Below, piece after piece: positions 1-42,008 of a DNA stretch of 64,000 bases (position 1 is its first letter; each line of letters starts with the position of its first letter). Made by a program: the position numbers and the translations under genes. The notes beneath the pieces are model-generated. The model saw only the letters and a list, made by a program, of their open reading frames with translations. It was not told where the DNA came from and did not search any database. This DNA is from an uncultured Gammaproteobacteria bacterium. Its GTDB lineage: Bacteria; Pseudomonadota; Gammaproteobacteria; UBA9214. The stretch spans positions 1 through 64,000 of the forward strand of contig CAVYZN010000005.1 in assembly GCA_963773065.1 (NCBI GenBank), read 5' to 3'.

Positions 1-3000
1 CGACGCCTTCCCGATAGGTGATACCGCCCGTTGCGGTCATCAGGATATTGGGACTCTGGTCGGCGTATTCCTTGATCTGCACGTCGCGCGATTTATTCCG
101 GACCAGGTGGATATCGATCTTGTCGTACCGGATTTCCTTCATGTAGTTGACCAGCCGCGAGACGGCGCCCAGCCCGAACAGGCCGGTGGGAATATTCGAC
201 CCGCCCTCCCCCAATACCCCCGCGAAGCCGGAACTTGTATCAGGACCGCACTGTTCGGATTGAACGGGCGGAAGTCGCCATCGCGGCTTCGCAGGCGCAT
301 GTCGAAGTACAGGTTGTTGCGATACTGGGGCAGGTTGGGCGAGGCGCGAAGGCATCGAGACTAACATCGAAGAGCCCTTCCGCGCGCGGCGTGGAGCCGG
401 GGGATAAGTTCCCGGAAAAACTTGGCCAGGTCGAACCGCTCCACACCGGGCAAAAACTTCAGGCCGTAGGGTGTCTCGCCGGGGGTAAAGCTCATCGACC
501 CGTCGAGCGTCATCGGGCCCTCGTGGAAATGCGCCGCGAAACCGTCGAGTTCGAGTTTGTCGGGTAGCAGAGCGGCTTGGCCCTGGATGTCGCGGAACTC
601 GAGATAATCCGTGTAGAAGAGGCGATCGAGTTCAATTTCACCCGCGCGTCATAGTCGCTCGTGTCCCAGAAGGCGCGCGCATCCGGCTTGAGGTCGGGGC
701 CGGCTTCTCCTCTGCCTGCTCCGCCGGGTTCTCCGCGGCCGCCGGCTTTGTTTCCCCGGAGGGCGCGGCCAGCTGTTTTCCCCGCGATGGCGTTCAGCGT
801 GTTCAGGATGTCATTGAGATAGAACACCGTGCTGTCGATGGCGATATCCACGACCTTGTTGCTGCCGCCCTTGGGGCATACGCGGCCTTCACCTGGATAT
901 CACTGTCGCCGGACTTGCCCTGTTCCCTGAGGGGCGCCGGAGGGTGAACCCGCCATCGGGGGCAAGCCGCCCTCGACATCCAGTTCAAGCGTCCGCAGCG
1001 CCAGCTCTTTCTTGGCCTTTAAATCCTGGATCCGGGTGGTCGCGGTGAGCTTCCCGCTGGTATCCACCCACACGTTGCCATGAGCTTGCCGGCCGTCAGG
1101 GTGTGACCGGGCAGGATCGCGGCTGATCGAGGACTGCCGGCAATAATGCCAACAGATCGGCGTTCAGGGCGTCGCTACGACAACACCAGCGGCTTTCAGC
1201 GTCAGGTCGGCGCGCGCATCGAGGGCATGCGCTCCGCGGTCGCGATCGAAGGCGATGCTGAGCGCACTCAGATTTGCCTGCAAGGTATCGCCCTGCAGGG
1301 TCGTTTCCGAATCCACCGCCAGGGTGAACGGGTTCAGCATGGCTCCGGCCGTGTTGTTCACGGCGATTCCCGTTATCTTGAGGGGTTCGATGGTATCGAC
1401 AGTCAGGGACTTGCCATTCGAGACGAGCACGGCCTTGCCGGTTGCATCCGAGAAGGCAAGGCCCTTCGCCTTGAGTATTTTCGCAAACGGCTCCGGCGTC
1501 AGGTGCGCCAGCGTGAGCGTGACCTTGCCGGTGGTGCGGCCGAGTTCCGATTGCCTCCCGCCAAGCCGGGTGCGCACCCGCAGTTTCGAATCAGCCTGCA
1601 GCGACACACGCGGTTCCGGGCGGTATAGAAGAGACTGGCCGCAAGGCGATCGATATCAATCGCCGAATCGCCAAGCGCCAGGCTGTAATCCGCCTCCAGC
1701 CGCACCGGTGCATCGAACGCCGCCTGCAAAGCCGTGGCGATAAGCGGTTGCCGCGAAAGCGCCTGCACGTCGACGTTGAGGTGACCGTCGGTCACGAGGG
1801 GTTTATCCGCCGATGCCGGCAGCGTGATCTGGCCGCTGCCGGAAACCAGCCGCGCCCTGTGACTGGTAACGCCGAGATCCTGGTAGTCGATATGCGTGCC
1901 TTCCGGTGCGATGCGGACGGCGGGCCTTACGCTGATGCCGAGATCATCGAGCAGCGGGCCTTCAGGGCCGGTGACAGTGACATGACTGATTTCGACGGGC
2001 TTGCCCGAGGTAATGGTGGCCGCGCCCTTAGCGTCAGCGGCCAGAGTCAGATCCGCGCGGTAGAGCTTGCCTTTCAGCGTGGTCGCCGGCACGAAGGCGG
2101 AAAACCAGTCCAGTTGGATGTCGCTGATGGTGAGCGTGGCCAACTCGCCCGTGGTGTTCCCGAGTTTGCGGCCGGCCGGCGTGGTTTCCATGACGAGGGG
2201 TTGCAGCACTTGCAGCCGCAGCAACCGGGTCTTGTTCTCCAGAGACAGGCTGGCATCCAGTTTGTTCACGGTCACCAAGCCGGGTTGTTGCCGCAGGGAT
2301 GCCTGATAATCCAGGCTGAGATGCCGGGGCAGTGTTTCCCGGCCCGCCGGTTTGATGGCGAGAAAGTCCACCAGCCTGTGCAGATCCAGGTCGGCATTGG
2401 CTTGTGCGGTGATGTCACCGTGCGACTGCTTCGACAGCGGGATGGTGGAATCGAGGTCGGCGGTGGCCAGTGCGCCCTTGCCGGCATCGACCACCAGCTT
2501 TTTGAGTGAGACACTGAGCGCATCGCCGCGATAGGTCACGCTTGGCAGAACTGACAGATTGAGGCCCTCGATGAAGGCTGTATCCTGTTGCTTGACGGTG
2601 AGCCCCGTTACCTCCAGTGGTTTGACCGGTTTGATGTGGATCGCGGCGCTGGCATCGGTTGTCACCTCGAAGGCGGCTTTCAGGATTCCGTCCGTGATTT
2701 CGTAATCGGGCAGGAACACGCCAAACCAGGCCAGCGGCACCCCGGGCAGTTCAAATTCCAGCAGGGTGTTTTCCTGGTGGAGGAAAGCATCGATATCGTC
2801 CATGGGAACATGGAGTTCACCGGGAAGTCTCGATGCCAGGGGTTTATTGTTGGCGTCGTCGAACATGTCCGTATCCAGCGTCTCGACCCGCAACTGCTTG
2901 CCGGGCAGCAGCGACACACGGAAATTATTCCTAAGCCGCAACATTTCGGGGAGCCTCTTGTCGGCGTGGACCTCCCGGATATCCTTCATCTGCAGGTCGC

Positions 3001-4017
3001 TGGTGATTGTCATGTCGCCGGTCAGGCTTGCGCTATTGAACTTGAACTCCCCCGTCAGCACTTCTCCGGCTGGCGCTATGACGGTATCCCTGAGATAGGG
3101 CTGCACCAGCCGCTCATTCGCCGTGGCTCGGTAGCCGCCATCAAAACCACCGCTATTCCCGTCATAGGTGCCGTCGAGTTCCACGGCCGAGCGGTTCTCC
3201 CCTTTGCTGTCATCAAGCCGCAGTGCAAGGCGCAGCGCCTCGGGTGTGTAGTGCGGCCCCTCGCCGTCCTCCGGAGGCGGGGGCGCCTCCTGCTGAACGG
3301 CAGCCGCGTGTGCCGGTGTGACGGCCAGGTTCAGATTGACGCGCTCCGTCTCCGGCAGCGTCGCCAGCGTGGTCTGAATGGCGAGCGCGGTTTCCATTCT
3401 CGCGAAGCGCCCCCGCGTGAGCTGATCCAGAACTAGCCGGCCATCGACATCGATATGATCATCCTTGTTACCCGTGTCGAAGTGTAACGCGACAGTGATG
3501 GCGCCGTTTGTCTTAGGTTTGATTCCGCCGCCTGAGATACTTGCGGTCAGTGACCGTTTCCCGGGGAGGCGGACCGTGATATTGATCATCACGTCCCGCA
3601 GGGTGTAACCGAGTCCGTGTTGCAGTGAGGCCAGCACACCGGGAAAGGGACCACCGCTTTTAGACTCCGCGGATTCGGGCGGGTTGAACTTCTCCAGGTC
3701 GATGCTGACATCCTTGAGTGCGAGGGTCTTGATGTTGAGATTCAACAGGAGGAGTGACGACAGGCAGTACTTGAACGACCCTTCCTCGATCGAGAAATGA
3801 CCGCCCCGATACCCCACGGAAAGATGCTTCAGGTCCAGTGACCATGGCGTGAGATGGATGTAACCGATTTCCAGCGAATCGACCAGGGGACCGACGTGGT
3901 CGAGCAGCATTTTTTTCTGGAAGGCGGGGTGAAATACGACGGCAGACACAACACCCAGGATGAGTGCAAGGCCCGCGGCAGATAAAACCTGGGACGCTTC
4001 AGATCAGCAAGGCGCAT
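1..4017 (-). CDS. Large AsmA-like/beta-rich envelope protein (>1300 aa), split by several frameshifts; 3' end lies outside the window
   Basis: Consecutive minus-strand ORF pieces (3829-4017, 1499-3949, 1164-1607, 510-851 and an open frame to position 1) read as one protein. It has an N-terminal hydrophobic anchor followed by beta-strand-like sequence. The family call is an inference. Confidence 0.55.
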
Positions 4018-4761: not shown

Positions 4762-4900
4762 GGGTATTTCTCCTTTGCCATTACACTCCCAGACATGGCA
4801 GGGAGGATTGTGAAGTCCTTCATGGTAGCTCTGATTAAGCCTGATAGGGGTCGAGAAGGGCTCGCGCCCTCCCCTCCCTCCGAACCGTGCGTGCGGTTCT

Positions 4901-6895
4901 GGTGAGTAGGTCGGTTCCTCCCGCCATGCCCGGACACTGTTTGTTTTCTCTGTTCCGCCTGGTTTCCCGGCGGTGCCACAATAGCGTGTCCACACAGCAG
5001 TACGTCCCCGACCCCTCGTAGAACCGGACAAGGTGCGTTACACCATCCGGCTCCCAGATTGAGTCATTCCGATCGGCTTAGGATAGAGGTTGTGAACAAT
5101 GCGTATACGCGGCAACACGCGTTCCAGCAATATCGGACGGAACCGCTTCCAAGGGATAGAACGGCGTTGACTACGCCGGTTGAGCCACTTGTACAGTAGG
5201 CGGCTCGCCGCCATGACGTAGCGACTCAACGCCCGGTAGTTGCCACTCACCCCATAGTAACGGATGTGCCCTTCAAGATGCCGCCGCACATAGTCCATCA
5301 TGGCCTTGCCACCGGCCATCCGTAGCCGGCACAGACGCTCGTTCAACTGCTTGAGTTTGCCATTGAACCGCTTCCGCTCAGTCTTGCGACCCACCACAAA
5401 GCGGCCGCGACGACTGCGACCGACGTAGTGGGTCAACCCCAGGAAGCTGAACGTCTGGGGACGACCTAGCCCATCCCGATGGCAATCCCTTTTCGCTTGC
5501 GTACCGAAACGCAGCACAGCCGTCTTGCTGGGCTCGACTTCCAGGTCAAAGGCAGCCACTCGCTCCCCCAATTCCCGGTGAAAGCGATGCGCCTCATCCT
5601 CGTGCTGAAAGCAGGCGATGAAGTCGTCGCAGTAGCGCACCAAAAAGGCTTTACCACGACAGGACTTCTTGTAACGCCGCTCGAACCACAGGTCCAGCAC
5701 GTAATGGAGGTAAATATTAGCCAATGCCGGTGATACCAACCCACCTTGTGGGGTCCCTTCATTCACCTCGTTGACCACCCCATCTTCCATTACCCCTGCC
5801 TTGAGAAACCGCTTCAGGATTCGCAGAACGTTCGGGTCTGCGATGCGGTGTTCCAGAAACCGTAGCAGGTGGGAATGCGAAACATGATCGAAGAAGCCTT
5901 TAATGTCGGCCTCTACCACCCACTGCGTGCGCTCGTTGGTAATGACCTCCGCCACTCGACGCAGCGCATCGTGCGCGCTGCGCCCGGGACGAAAACCAAA
6001 AGAGCAGTCCTGAAACTCCGGCTCCCATATCGCCTGCAGAATCAGACTCAGTCGATCCTGCACAATGCGATCCTCAAAACAAGGAATGCCCAGCGGACGA
6101 CGACGGCCATTCCCTTTCGGGATGTATACTCGCCGCACCGGCTGCGGCCGATAGCCCATTTGCCTCAGGCTACACGACAGCTCCGTTAGCCGGCTTTCCA
6201 GCCCTTCCGCATAGTCCACTTTCCTGATTCCATCCACTCCGGGCGCCTTCTTTCCATCTTGACGCCCGAAGCTGGCGTGCAACCCCTCCGGGTCGAACAG
6301 CAGCCCCATCAGGGCATTGAACCGCAACTGCGGTTCCGCACGCGCCTTCTCGGTGAAACGGATAAACTTCGTTGTCATGGTCACAGTCCGCTCAGTGTCG
6401 GGCCATGTTGCCCTTACCCGTTGTCTCAAACCGGTGCCCCTTTGCTCCACCCGCATTACCGGGCTTCATCGCTCGTATGGGCACCCCCGACTTCCGACCG
6501 CCACCGCCCTCTTCCTCGCTTGCTAGGCTTGTCCGAGGGTACGCAGATCCCTCTGCGCCGACTGTCGGATCTCCCTGGTTACCGCGCAATCGCCTTGTGA
6601 GGCTCGAAGCGACCTTAGATCCCGGGGCGTTCCCTGACACTTGCCTCTCACGCGTCAGGAACTGTTGCCTGCTGGGTGCAAGAACCCATCGGCCGATTCC
6701 AACGATGCCGTTTTCGGGACTCAACGTCTTCAGGGTCAGCATCACCTGTTACCTTTGCACCTCGCCTCCTTTCGTACCTACGCATCAATCAGCAAGTTAC
6801 CCCGCTGACTGCAAGGCTCAATACCGGGCCCGTGGCTAGCGGCTACCCGGGTGGGATTCGCACCCACTCGATTACGCGACCTTGCCAGGTCGCAT
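4901..6895 (-). mobile_element. Inner group II intron with intact RT (boundaries +/-1 nt)
   Basis: Starts ATGCGACC at about 6895. Has its own domain V (GAGCCGGATGGTG-TAACG-CACCTTGTCCGGTTC) near 5053-5021 and a long domain VI ending CCTACTCACC at about 4901. Confidence 0.85.
5038..6378 (-). CDS. ltrA: Group II intron reverse transcriptase/maturase, no endonuclease domain
   Basis: Motifs KAPGVDG, RRVYIPK, RPLGIP, SFGFRPGRS, DIKGFFD, GTPQGG, RYCDDF, FSFLG and an X domain. Start placed at MTTKF. Confidence 0.95.
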   Translation of the reverse strand: MTTKFIRFTEKARAEPQLRFNALMGLLFDPEGLHASFGRQDGKKAPGVDGIRKVDYAEGLESRLTELSCSLRQMGYRPQPVRRVYIPKGNGRRRPLGIPCFEDRIVQDRLSLILQAIWEPEFQDCSFGFRPGRSAHDALRRVAEVITNERTQWVVEADIKGFFDHVSHSHLLRFLEHRIADPNVLRILKRFLKAGVMEDGVVNEVNEGTPQGGLVSPALANIYLHYVLDLWFERRYKKSCRGKAFLVRYCDDFIACFQHEDEAHRFHRELGERVAAFDLEVEPSKTAVLRFGTQAKRDCHRDGLGRPQTFSFLGLTHYVGRSRRGRFVVGRKTERKRFNGKLKQLNERLCRLRMAGGKAMMDYVRRHLEGHIRYYGVSGNYRALSRYVMAASRLLYKWLNRRSQRRSIPWKRFRPILLERVLPRIRIVHNLYPKPIGMTQSGSRMV

Positions 6896-6927
6896 CCCCG
6901 CACCCGGCTCTCCAGTGGGTGGTTTCC

Positions 6928-7141
6928 TCATCGGGAGTGTCTCGCAGCCAGCCAGGCCGTATGTAGGGAGAACAGCCCGGCGTCCGCGAAGAAGGCATTG
7001 GGCCACTTTGTACCACTTGCCTCCTTCGACGCCGTTTACCAGCGCCGACACCATGCGCTCCGTCCAGAGAGAAGCTTCCACCCACGACCAGTCGCGGGGC
7101 TCTGCACCTTGTTTAGCCCTCGCGGGCACTGTCGATGCTAT
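6928..7141 (-). pseudogene. Remnant of the outer intron RT: N- and C-terminal stubs joined by a large internal deletion
   Basis: N-terminal WVEASLWTERMVSALVNGVEGGKWY is joined out of frame to C-terminal WPNAFFADAGLFSLHTAWLAARHSR*. All RT core motifs are missing. Confidence 0.8.
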
Positions 7142-7582
7142 CATTTGCTCCTCTCTGTCTTTCACGCTTCCACCTTCCTGCCCACCTTCCCTCGGCCTGG
7201 CTTTGCTAACCCGGCCTCTCGCGGCTTGCACCGCCTCGGTACTATGCGGGCTCTGACTCCTAACCCTCATCGCCCTGAGAATCAGGTCTCTCCGCTTAAG
7301 ACGCTTTGCCTTCCGAACATCCCGCCCCCAACCACGTCATGCGCCCGGACGTCGTTTTCACAGTCATCTCAACGCGTCCGGCGGGTTCCAGGCTTCGCCA
7401 TGAATGAGCAGGCTCGCCGCTACATGCCGCCGAATCGGGTTCGTCTGCCTGCGGGCTATTCTTTCGCCTTCGGTTGCTCACCACCCCGCCTCGCGGCGAC
7501 GCAGTTACCTTCGGCTACACAGGTTGTGACTTCCTATGACATGGACTTTCACCTTGTTAACAAAACGTCCTCACGGACGCAC

Positions 7583-34085: not shown

Positions 34086-34162
34086 TGGCGGAGTGGACGG
34101 GACTCGAACCCGCGACCCCCGGCGTGACAGGCCGGTATTCTAACCAGCTGAACTACCACTCC
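34086..34162 (-). tRNA. tRNA-Asp(GTC)
   Basis: Cloverleaf, GTTCGA T-loop, CCA end. Confidence 0.96.
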
Positions 34163-34169
34163 ATGTCCA

Positions 34170-34245
34170 TGGTGGGTGCTGAGGGGATCGAACCCCCGAC
34201 ATTCGCCTTGTAAGGGCGACGCTCTCCCATCTGAGCTAAGCACCC
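34170..34245 (-). tRNA. tRNA-Val(TAC)
   Basis: Anticodon loop CTTACAA, CCA end. Confidence 0.96.
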
Positions 34246-40917: not shown

Positions 40918-41002
40918 TGGTGCGAAAGGAGAGGCTCGAACTCTCACGGGTTACCCCACTGGCACCTAAAACCAGCGCGTCTACCGATTCCGCCACTTTC
41001 GC
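40918..41002 (-). tRNA. tRNA-Leu(TAG)
   Basis: 85 nt with variable arm, CCA end. Confidence 0.95.
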
Positions 41003-41128
41003 CGCTTGTGCTAATTACCGTTTGCCGGTTCTGGCAAGACCGGATAATGCAAATAAGTATAACGGCTTGTCGTCACAGATCGCACCTGGGTTTTTTACCT
41101 CGCCGCCCCGGGAAAACAGGTGCCATGG

Positions 41129-41492
41129 CAGGCGCATCGCTCTCGCTCCGCCGCTTACGGCATCCTCGGTAACTGCTCCTGCGTTACCCTACCTCCTGCA
41201 TCCCTGCAGTCGTGCCTTCCGCGACACTTGCACCTCCCTGTGCATCGGTCGCTACGGGCATACTACCCTCCCGCGACACTCGCACATCCCTGTGCATCGT
41301 CCCTGCGCTTCGCGATGATGGACAGGACGTCCGAATGTCGCGGAGCATAGGACGTGCGAGAGCGACTGTACCTACATCCCTGTGGGCGCATCGCTCCCGC
41401 GCTTCCCTGCGCTCCGCGATGTACCTACATCCCTTACGGCGCATCGCTCCCGCGCCTCCCTGCGCTTCGCGATGTACCTACATCCCTGTAGG
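41129..41492. repeat. Repeat mosaic with 53-bp tandem units (41367, 41420, partial at 41473)
   Basis: Unit TGTACCTACATCCCT...GCGCATCGCTCCCGCGC(T/C)TCCCTGCGCT(C/T)CGCGA, plus recurring CATCCCTG motifs. Confidence 0.8.
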
Positions 41493-41529
41493 CAAAAAAA
41501 TGCCCGCGCAATGCACAGGCATCCTGGTC

Positions 41530-41605
41530 TGGTGGGCCGTGTAGGAATCGAACCTACAACCAATGGATTAAGAGTCCACTGCTCTACCAATTGAGCTAAC
41601 GACCC
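41530..41605 (-). tRNA. tRNA-Lys(CTT)
   Basis: Anticodon loop CTCTTAA, CCA end. Confidence 0.95.
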
Positions 41606-41687
41606 GAAAGCCGGTATTGGATCACACAGGCAGGAGGGGTTCAAGTTTGAAGTCGGCTACCACCCAGCGTGGGCAAGGACGGAAAAA

Positions 41688-41764
41688 TGGGGTGGACGAT
41701 GGGACTCGAACCCACGACGACTGGAATCACAATCCAGGACTCTACCAACTGAGCTACGTCCACC
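41688..41764 (-). tRNA. tRNA-His(GTG)
   Basis: Anticodon loop TTGTGAT, CCA end. Confidence 0.95.
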
Positions 41765-41807
41765 ATCGAGCTGTTATCGCACGGCACTCACTCGGCACGG
41801 GCTGATT

Positions 41808-41884
41808 TGGCGCGCCCGGCAGGGCTCGAACCTGCAACCGTCGGCTTAGAAGGCCGGTGCTCTATCCGGTTGAGCTACGGGCGC
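41808..41884 (-). tRNA. tRNA-Arg(TCT)
   Basis: Anticodon loop CTTCTAA, CCA end. Confidence 0.95.
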
Positions 41885-41931
41885 CAGTCCCTTTGCCCGG
41901 TCCCCGCGACTTGCTGCGCCCCAGCAAAGAC

Positions 41932-42008
41932 TGGTCGGGGTAGAGGGATTTGAACCCCCGACATCCTGCTCCCAAAGCAGGCGCGCTACCAGACTGCGCT
42001 ATACCCCG
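41932..42008 (-). tRNA. tRNA-Pro(TGG)
   Basis: Anticodon loop TTTGGGA, CCA end. Confidence 0.95.

Follow-up and report, generated by a model that had tools for sequence, protein, structure and literature searches.

When one group II intron is found inside domain V of another, has it landed there by accident, or does it aim at that site? The question is raised by the first 64,000 nucleotides of contig CAVYZN010000005.1 (GenBank assembly GCA_963773065.1), from an uncultured gammaproteobacterium of the lineage UBA9214. In this stretch, called the window here, domain V of an outer group II intron is split by an inner intron with its own reverse transcriptase (RT). Based on the comparative sequence analysis reported here, the inner element is very probably an autonomous intron with IIB-type target recognition and an endonuclease-less RT, and it would belong to a small lineage that homes to the domain V apex of other group II introns. 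All features of this twintron are on the minus strand, and those that concern the inner intron and its target are the following (EBS and IBS, exon- and intron-binding site; ORF, open reading frame):

4901..6896, minus: inner RT-encoding group II intron, GAUGCG...CUCACC, 1996 nt; ends from empty versus occupied sites and from loose ends
6897..6910, minus: 5' half of the outer domain V, GAGCCGGGUGCGGG; its last six bases (6902-6897) are IBS1
4882..4900, minus: 3' half of the outer domain V, AGAACCGCACGCACGGUUC; A4900 is IBS3
6610..6860, minus: inner domain I match, Rfam RF02005 group-II-D1D4-6, 114.9 bits (gathering score 49)
6673..6688, minus: EBS1 stem-loop; EBS1 is CUUGCA (6682-6677), from covariation with the 5' exon
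6617, minus: EBS3 (U), pairing with A4900, the first base of the 3' exon
5038..6378, minus: intron-encoded reverse transcriptase/maturase, 446 aa; Pfam RVT_1, E 4.5e-35; YCDD motif
5020..5053, minus: the inner intron's own domain V, GAGCCGGAUGGUGUAACGCACCUUGUCCGGUUC, overlapping the RT stop codon; apex GGUGUAACGCACC
4901..5016, minus: inner domain VI, unusually long, from the Rfam alignment; bulged A4907, seven bases from the 3' end

Rejoining 6910-6897 with 4900-4882 gives a domain V hairpin of -20.6 kcal/mol, of the same shape as the intact domain V (GAGCCGUGUGCGGGAGAACCGCACGCACGGUUC, -20.8 kcal/mol) of two relatives of the outer intron that lie on contig C10 of this genome. When joined, the sequences on either side of the inner intron thus fold into a functional element of the outer one, whose domains I and VI are also present, as is expected of a twintron. 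The exact insertion point comes from an empty site in the same genome (C11:115761), in an ORF-less RF02005-type intron, which reads ...GAACCGGAUGCGGG^AAAACUGCACGUCCGGGUC (^ marks the insertion point here and below). Its flanks are those of an occupied site in L010, a copy from a metagenome-assembled genome (MAG) with an RT 87% identical, and the inserted unit therefore starts at G6896 (G-AUGCG...CUCACC). Two loose ends of 10 letters from other metagenomes, in which 6897 is joined straight to 4900, agree with these boundaries.

Pairing of the inner intron with its target

An initial annotation of this DNA had taken a hairpin of the inner intron, UGGGU-UCUUGC-ACCCA, as the carrier of EBS1. The hairpin is present at 6688-6673 on the minus strand exactly as described, within the domain I match (RF02005, 6860-6610), where it occupies the variable terminal loop of an RF02005 hairpin. 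The annotation had paired the loop with GCGGGG, which does stand at 6901-6896, and had correctly counted three Watson-Crick and three G-U pairs, considering at the same time that a 6-nt match is weak when taken singly. The pairing is validated by covariation between EBS1 and IBS1 among relatives.

Relatives of the RT were present in 568 of 601 candidate stretches from genome contigs and in 580 of 598 from metagenome contigs, the best 80 of each being used. Intron 5' ends were found with an nhmmer profile (112 matches), and the loop homologous to 6688-6673 was then extracted. A 15-nt loop string together with 8 nt or more of 5' exon was available for 52 introns, which yielded 24 distinct IBS1/EBS1 combinations. 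Pairing is complete (6/6) in 19 of these 24, with a mean of 5.54, whereas mismatched partners pair at a mean of 2.61 positions and reach 6/6 in 4.5% of 510 cases. Matched IBS1/EBS1 pairs include GGGACA/UGUCCC, GGGUCA/UGACCC, CCAUUU/AAAUGG, GUCUUG/CAAGAC, CCGGAG/CUCCGG, GCCUUG/CAAGGC, UGCGGG/CCCGCA, and UGUGGG/CCCACA. The five combinations short of 6/6 are L126, where the intron stands in tandem behind another, L113, an artefact in which the loop was read from a nested inner intron, and three at 5/6. Because the covariation holds across the 24 combinations, the loop first singled out can be assigned as EBS1.

In the register common to the relatives, loop position 6 is opposite exon base -1. For the window, this aligns EBS1 CUUGCA (6682-6677) with IBS1 UGCGGG (6902-6897) through four Watson-Crick and two G-U pairs, and the resulting EBS1-IBS1 pairing of about 6 bp is that of group IIB introns. 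The first proposal was consequently right in pairing this loop with the bases before the insertion, but its register is one base off, and the empty-site comparison shows that its insertion point lay one base too far 3'. Also as in group IIB introns, EBS3 and IBS3 form a single pair, U6617-A4900 in the window; the EBS3 column and the first 3' exon base are complementary in 40/43 introns (U:A 20, G:C 6, C:G 14), and two of the three misses are G-U. For EBS2, no covarying block was found in the family alignment, and target positions -7 to -12 vary. The motif UGACCC in domain I (about 6726-6731) was considered as EBS2 for GGGUCA-type exons and rejected, being conserved whatever the exon.

Recurrence of the insertion site and its specificity

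The RT clade of the inner intron comprises 13 copies, counting four from the congeneric genome G009 and a partial one at L181 380-602 (C, G, and L are our labels for contigs, genomes, and loci, G000 being the genome of the window). Domain V halves are found on every visible flank in 12 of the 13, and the insertion point is constant in the clade, after the first loop base (UGCGG G^ARAW CYGCA), which upholds the earlier suggestion that the nesting reflects programmed targeting and not chance. The remaining copy, on contig C32 of the window's genome, has a domain V half on its 3' flank only. The flanks can be grouped as follows:

Window, L010, L178, L179, L180: both flanks rejoin into a full domain V hairpin
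L181: both flanks rejoin with a degenerate upper helix, a weakened domain V
L091, L095: domain V halves on both sides with mismatched lower helices, from chimeric assembly or recombination
L090, L092, L093, and the partial copy at L181 380-602: usable domain V half on one side, because the contig ends there
C32 copy: hybrid, with a coding 5' flank ending UUGCGGG and a 3' flank made of a domain V 3' half plus domain VI

The rejoined domain V has a lower helix of 8-9 bp, a 2-nt bulge, a 5-bp upper helix, and a 5-nt loop. The outer introns are of at least three kinds, being RF02001-type in the window, ORF-less and RF02005-type in L010 and at the empty C11 site, and RT-encoding with no match to the Rfam D1-D4 models in G009. 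One insertion site therefore recurs in independent, diverged outer introns, as would be expected of a lineage that homes to it. Moreover, recent mobility is indicated by three G009 copies with identical RTs and different flanks, and by the C32 copy (C32:189813-191808), which differs from that of the window at 2/1996 bases. At L181, the nesting is three levels deep (380-1532) and includes an insertion within an RT ORF.

On a quick IQ-TREE phylogeny of 52 RT rows, introns whose exon is UG(C/U)GGG fall into two subclades, both with a Shimodaira-Hasegawa-like approximate likelihood ratio test support of 100. Domain V targeting requires one label change on this tree, a value reached by 0/500 shuffles, and a 5' exon of the domain V type occurs in 0/42 rows outside the clade. 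Insertion at other sites was seen among relatives outside the clade, each site being matched by the EBS1 of its own intron.

Several of these other clades (L011, L012, L040, L119, L123; L025-L028, L118) use other strongly conserved sites, such as GGGGTCACCATTT^..AGCTGACCCC, in the loop of an apparent inverted repeat, and GGGGTCAGGTCTTG^. Short tandem arrays of the motif itself often precede sites of the form GGGG(A/T)CA^ (L023, L036, L045, L052, L111, L114). At L113 (301-1050), domain I of one family member is interrupted by a second, ORF-less member (EBS1 CAAGGC, facing GCCUUG), and at L126 (about 1222) one intron stands directly behind the 3' end of another.

How common is the target? The empty-target pattern TGCGGGARAWCYGCAYG occurs in 30/401 sampled genomes of the class (three of the 30 being unpublished), whereas the reversed control gave 1 match. 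When one locus per genome was examined, 22/30 proved to be domain V hairpins with at least 7/8 lower-helix pairs (two of them in unpublished genomes), 21 of the 22 with the AGC triad; the remaining 8/30 are not domain V. These 22 loci have at least nine different lower helices, and the target apex is a sequence common to many otherwise diverged introns. A generic domain V pattern scan of the window's genome was set aside, its 74 matches being mostly spurious. The same genome contains a perfect 15-nt copy of the apex, TGCGGGAAAACTGCA, at C11:243869-243885 (L171, about 869), in apparent coding sequence that is not domain V, and this copy is unoccupied.

The seven paired bases, however, cannot account for the restriction to domain V, because the genome of the window has 777 TGCGGGA sites, of which only about five are in a domain V. 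An extra determinant, either the domain V DNA hairpin or contacts made by the RT, is likely, and we favor it over the purging of insertions made elsewhere.

A separate matter is the pair of uridines in the EBS1 of the window. The only differences between the window and C32 copies are the adjacent positions 6681 and 6680, TT in the former and CC in the latter (C32:190028-190029), both within the 6-nt EBS1. Relatives have CCCGCA (4 introns), CUCGCA (5), or CCCACA (1), the latter being a compensatory case within the clade (L090, with UGUGGG), and CUUGCA is found only in the window copy; all observed targets of the clade have GGG at -1 to -3. The initial annotation had proposed that a U-rich, wobble-tolerant loop could give access to the domain V of many introns, an idea that this comparison does not support, given relatives with CCCGCA or CUCGCA and targets that are all GGG. 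Judging from the aligned copies, the UU is a private derived change whose predicted pairing is kept through wobble, and it does not explain the range of the lineage. The breadth of the lineage comes instead from the target itself, the domain V apex UGCGGG-ARAW-CYGCA common to many introns. The TT/CC difference may be due to selection for altered targeting, to damage of an exposed RNA loop that reverse transcription then fixed, or to chance.

For the lineage as a whole, the sequence comparison shows that EBS1 (CCCGCA in most members, CUUGCA here) pairs with UGCGGG, the 5' strand of the upper helix of domain V plus the first loop base, and that EBS3 (U6617) pairs with the next loop base, A, with the intron placed exactly between the two pairings. 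The following mechanism can be proposed. The intron-RT particle would reverse-splice into the DNA copy of domain V and then be copied by the RT. Since no endonuclease domain was detected, the primer would probably be supplied by replication, as for other introns that lack this domain. At the RNA level, splicing of the inner intron would have to come first, restoring domain V of the outer intron and so enabling that intron to splice. The benefit to the inner intron would be a safe, self-renewing, multicopy target within selfish DNA that imposes no cost on the cell and that the host intron could hardly alter by mutation. It would not invade itself, because the apex of its own domain V (GGUGUAAC...) is without the target sequence.

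Several observations weigh against this explanation. Just seven paired bases are identified, with no EBS2, and three perfect empty targets are still unfilled in the same genome. The occupied junction is found in 1/401 sampled genomes, the window's own, and the lineage must therefore be rare. Only 8 sources contributed the 13 copies, namely two genomes belonging to a single genus, a further MAG, and five contigs from metagenomes. On the quick tree, the branch uniting both subclades has a support of 69. Also, because the lower helices of their flanks do not match, which fits assembly chimeras or recombination, L091, L095, and C32 are weaker as independent events, and the protein-coding 5' flank of C32, ending UUGCGGG, means that the intron can land outside a domain V or has recombined. 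The termini are non-canonical (5' GAUGCG, 3' ...ACC), and the Rfam RF00029 match is under the gathering score. Finally, the evidence is comparative, and the contigs of four sequencing runs are short pieces that yielded no sign of transcription or splicing; those from an RNA library cover only parts of domain I and the 5' junction, one of them crossing the junction to 6912, and they could represent precursor RNA or derive from DNA.

Which other explanations could account for the locus? A single chance nesting with fortuitous complementarity would draw on the fact that one 6-nt match containing wobbles is often expected by chance, but it is refuted by the covariation over 24 combinations and by the domain V sequence on at least one flank of 13/13 clade copies. 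It is also very improbable that whole twintrons move as a unit and that the repeated domain V context is inherited from one ancient accident. Composite mobility is discussed for Thermosynechococcus elongatus in the available part of the report on that species (PMC2882425), and the outer introns of L178 and L180 are of one type; however, the outer introns differ in Rfam type, in the lower helices of domain V, and in domain VI, whereas the inner copies are nearly identical (the 2/1996 differences between the window and C32), and empty sites with the same flanks exist.

Two further possibilities deserve slightly more weight, although both are improbable. In one of them, the intron reads the 7-base motif TGCGGG^A alone and inserts anywhere, so that copies in domain V persist as neutral while others are purged. 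The pairings found, EBS1 with six nucleotides and EBS3 with one and no EBS2, would be in line with this, as would the coding 5' flank of C32. Nonetheless, with so few of the 777 motif sites in a domain V, 12/13 copies are flanked by domain V throughout, non-coding sites outside introns should be tolerated as well and none is seen occupied, and the 3' side of C32 is still a domain V half, which fits recombination between two copies. In the other, the U-rich EBS1 (UCUUGC/CUUGCA) is adaptive: by accepting either A or G, it makes the intron a generalist for domain V of many intron classes. CUUGCA could pair with UGC[AG][AG]G, of which the genome has 2591 sites followed by A as compared with 777 strict ones; moreover, it would be unlikely for random substitutions that both differences between the two copies fall within EBS1, and a single U recurs at the same place (CUCGCA in L095 and the G009 copies). 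On the other hand, none of the observed copies occupies a target whose -2 or -3 base is A, the ancestral state is C-rich in the relatives, the window copy itself is at an ordinary UGCGGG site, and a tandem CC>TT change may be simple damage or drift.

Homing of a small lineage to the domain V apex is then the explanation that we retain. A more ambitious version of it can be considered tentatively, although we think it rather doubtful: a hyperparasitic lineage with the domain V apex across intron classes as its obligate niche, which would recognize 7 bp plus the domain V DNA hairpin (a new in-loop, structure-assisted mode, unlike that of group IIC), with an EBS1 that is actively diversifying and a CC>UU change that may be widening or shifting the range of domain V sequences accepted.

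Anatomy of the two introns

The inner intron shows the ribozyme domain I-IV fold of group II introns (RF02005), an RT/maturase ORF in domain IV, a domain V with the AGC triad, and a domain VI with a bulged A. Its RT scores 340.8 bits with NCBIfam TIGR04416 (cut-off 300); RVT_1 is the sole Pfam match in its 446 aa, with no endonuclease domain detected, and its best plasmid match by tblastn, 47% identical, is annotated merely as ltrA. Because of the long insert in domain VI, the RF00029 match on domains V and VI (5055-4901) reaches 32.8 bits (E 6e-4), below the gathering score of 40. This insert of about 85 nt (4925-5000), with the conserved core ..UUGUGGCACCGCCGGGAAACCAGGCGG..AACAGAGAA.AC.AAC.., occurs in roughly half of the aligned relatives, the rest having a short domain VI. 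In one RNA-library run and three metagenomes, read depth over 4930-5004 is far above that of the remainder of the inner intron.

The inner intron lacks the consensus termini (5' GUGYG, 3' AY). Across its family, 5' ends are GUGCG, GUUGCG, GAUGCG, GUCGCG, or GCAGCG, and 3' ends are ...CUC(A/U)CC, not AY; the odd 5' ends can be read as a one-base insertion after G1 relative to GUGYG, which would make them a variant and no ground for exclusion. Starts at GUGCG 6903 or 6864 were ruled out by the alignment of 5' ends and by the empty-site comparisons.

The C32 copy lies in L002 (G000 C32:188307-193319), at 1507-3502. Upstream is a 308-aa repeat-protein ORF ending ...GGTLAPGVAPNTTSIAG, with no outer domain I, and downstream are the 3' half of a domain V and a domain VI. 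Such a layout points to two copies having recombined with a deletion, or else to a join made in assembly.

The outer intron of the window, which has lost most of its RT gene as compared with the ORF-containing C10 relatives, has the following features:

4844..7582, minus: outer group II intron, ORF-deleted, 743 nt minus the insert
7301..7500, minus: domain I-IV match, Rfam RF02001 group-II-D1D4-3, 42.4 bits (gathering score 32)
6872..7270, minus: 132-aa ORF, remnant of the outer RT gene; the C10 relatives have about 1.2 kb of extra sequence here
4844..4881, minus: outer domain VI; matches domain VI of the C10 relatives; RF00029, 57.4 bits on L009
7583..7606, minus: hairpin TCATTCCCGC-TTTC-GCGGGAATGA, directly 5' of the outer intron; identical in 3/3 copies of this intron type

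Its 5' end, GTGCG at 7582, comes from the alignment to the two C10 relatives, which are 76% identical, and its 3' end at 4844 from the RF00029 end in the relative L009 and from the point where L008 and L009 diverge. A Pfam search of the 132-aa ORF returned no family. In 3/3 copies, the outer intron type stands directly downstream of the hairpin, a layout that resembles the insertion of group IIC introns after a hairpin and may point to a link with that class; the domain I-IV match of the ribozyme in Rfam is to RF02001. At C10:18617-23180, the two ORF-containing relatives stand in tandem about 2.6 kb apart, each with the identical upstream hairpin and with an empty domain V target. Unrelated to the twintron, the window also has seven tRNA genes on the minus strand, in two clusters at 34089-34245 and 40921-42008.

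Significance and relation to known nested introns

Group II introns are usually seen as parasites of genomes, whereas the lineage of the inner intron appears to parasitize introns. It targets the element that the host intron can least change, by the same logic that places homing endonucleases on the conserved sites of essential genes; in addition, this target does the cell no harm and gains copies each time the host intron spreads. The family offers a natural system for the evolution of target specificity, having been retargeted to at least ten sites by six loop bases and one EBS3 base, and it allows asking whether 7 bp plus a DNA hairpin can be a source of site specificity, which bears on targetron design. 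There is also a practical consequence, since pipelines that look for an intact domain V will miss the outer introns of twintrons split in this domain. The authors of one published pipeline state that, when introns are nested, it cannot detect the outer one (PMC8919778).

In the literature searched, no description was found of a bacterial intron lineage homing into domain V, although an earlier one is possible in subscription papers and supplements, which were outside this scope. The nearest case by position is reportedly the psbF twintron of the Euglena gracilis chloroplast, said to have an internal intron in domain V of the external one and to require splicing of the inner intron first. That twintron is said to involve degenerate introns with no ORF at one organellar locus, as opposed to a recurrent, RT-encoding mobile lineage. 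For Methanosarcina acetivorans, a paper by Dai and Zimmerly (2003) reportedly deals, going by its title, with intron ORFs as targets.

The comparisons that follow are drawn from the accessible portions of the papers cited. In T. elongatus, F3 (TeI3) introns home into a conserved site of F1 (TeI4) introns, and the authors interpret this nesting as a proliferation strategy (PMC2882425). As in the lineage described here, the homing site is inside other group II introns, and identical inner copies are found in outer introns that have diverged (PMC2882425). However, in T. elongatus the site belongs to domain IV and falls between the first and second ATG of the RT ORF, not at the domain V apex; the inner introns have no ORF and use the RT of the outer intron, whereas here the inner intron has its own; and inner and outer introns are close relatives, in contrast to the several unrelated types of outer introns found here (PMC2882425). 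The nested introns of M. acetivorans show repeated site-specific homing, multi-level nesting, and recombinational deletion between copies (PMC4424553), and the multi-level nesting in L181 and the hybrid flanks of C32 are similar to these.

Group IIC introns insert after terminator or attC hairpins (PMC4424553, PMC12584367). The inner intron resembles them in its endonuclease-less RT, its short target pairing, and the GC-rich DNA hairpin at its target (PMC4424553, PMC12584367). However, group IIC introns insert downstream of the hairpin with an EBS1 pairing of 3-4 bp, whereas the insertion here is inside the terminal loop, with 6 bp formed with one strand of the stem, and recognition of the hairpin is in this case a candidate feature only (PMC4424553, PMC12584367). 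The Trichodesmium twintron is, like this one, bacterial, and for it sequential splicing has been demonstrated (PMC4649490); its inner intron lies in domain I, as a single case within a gene, whereas here the domain V apex is occupied (PMC4649490). Homing into other introns was therefore already known, and what appears new, in the light of the literature searched, is a bacterial lineage aimed at the apex of domain V.

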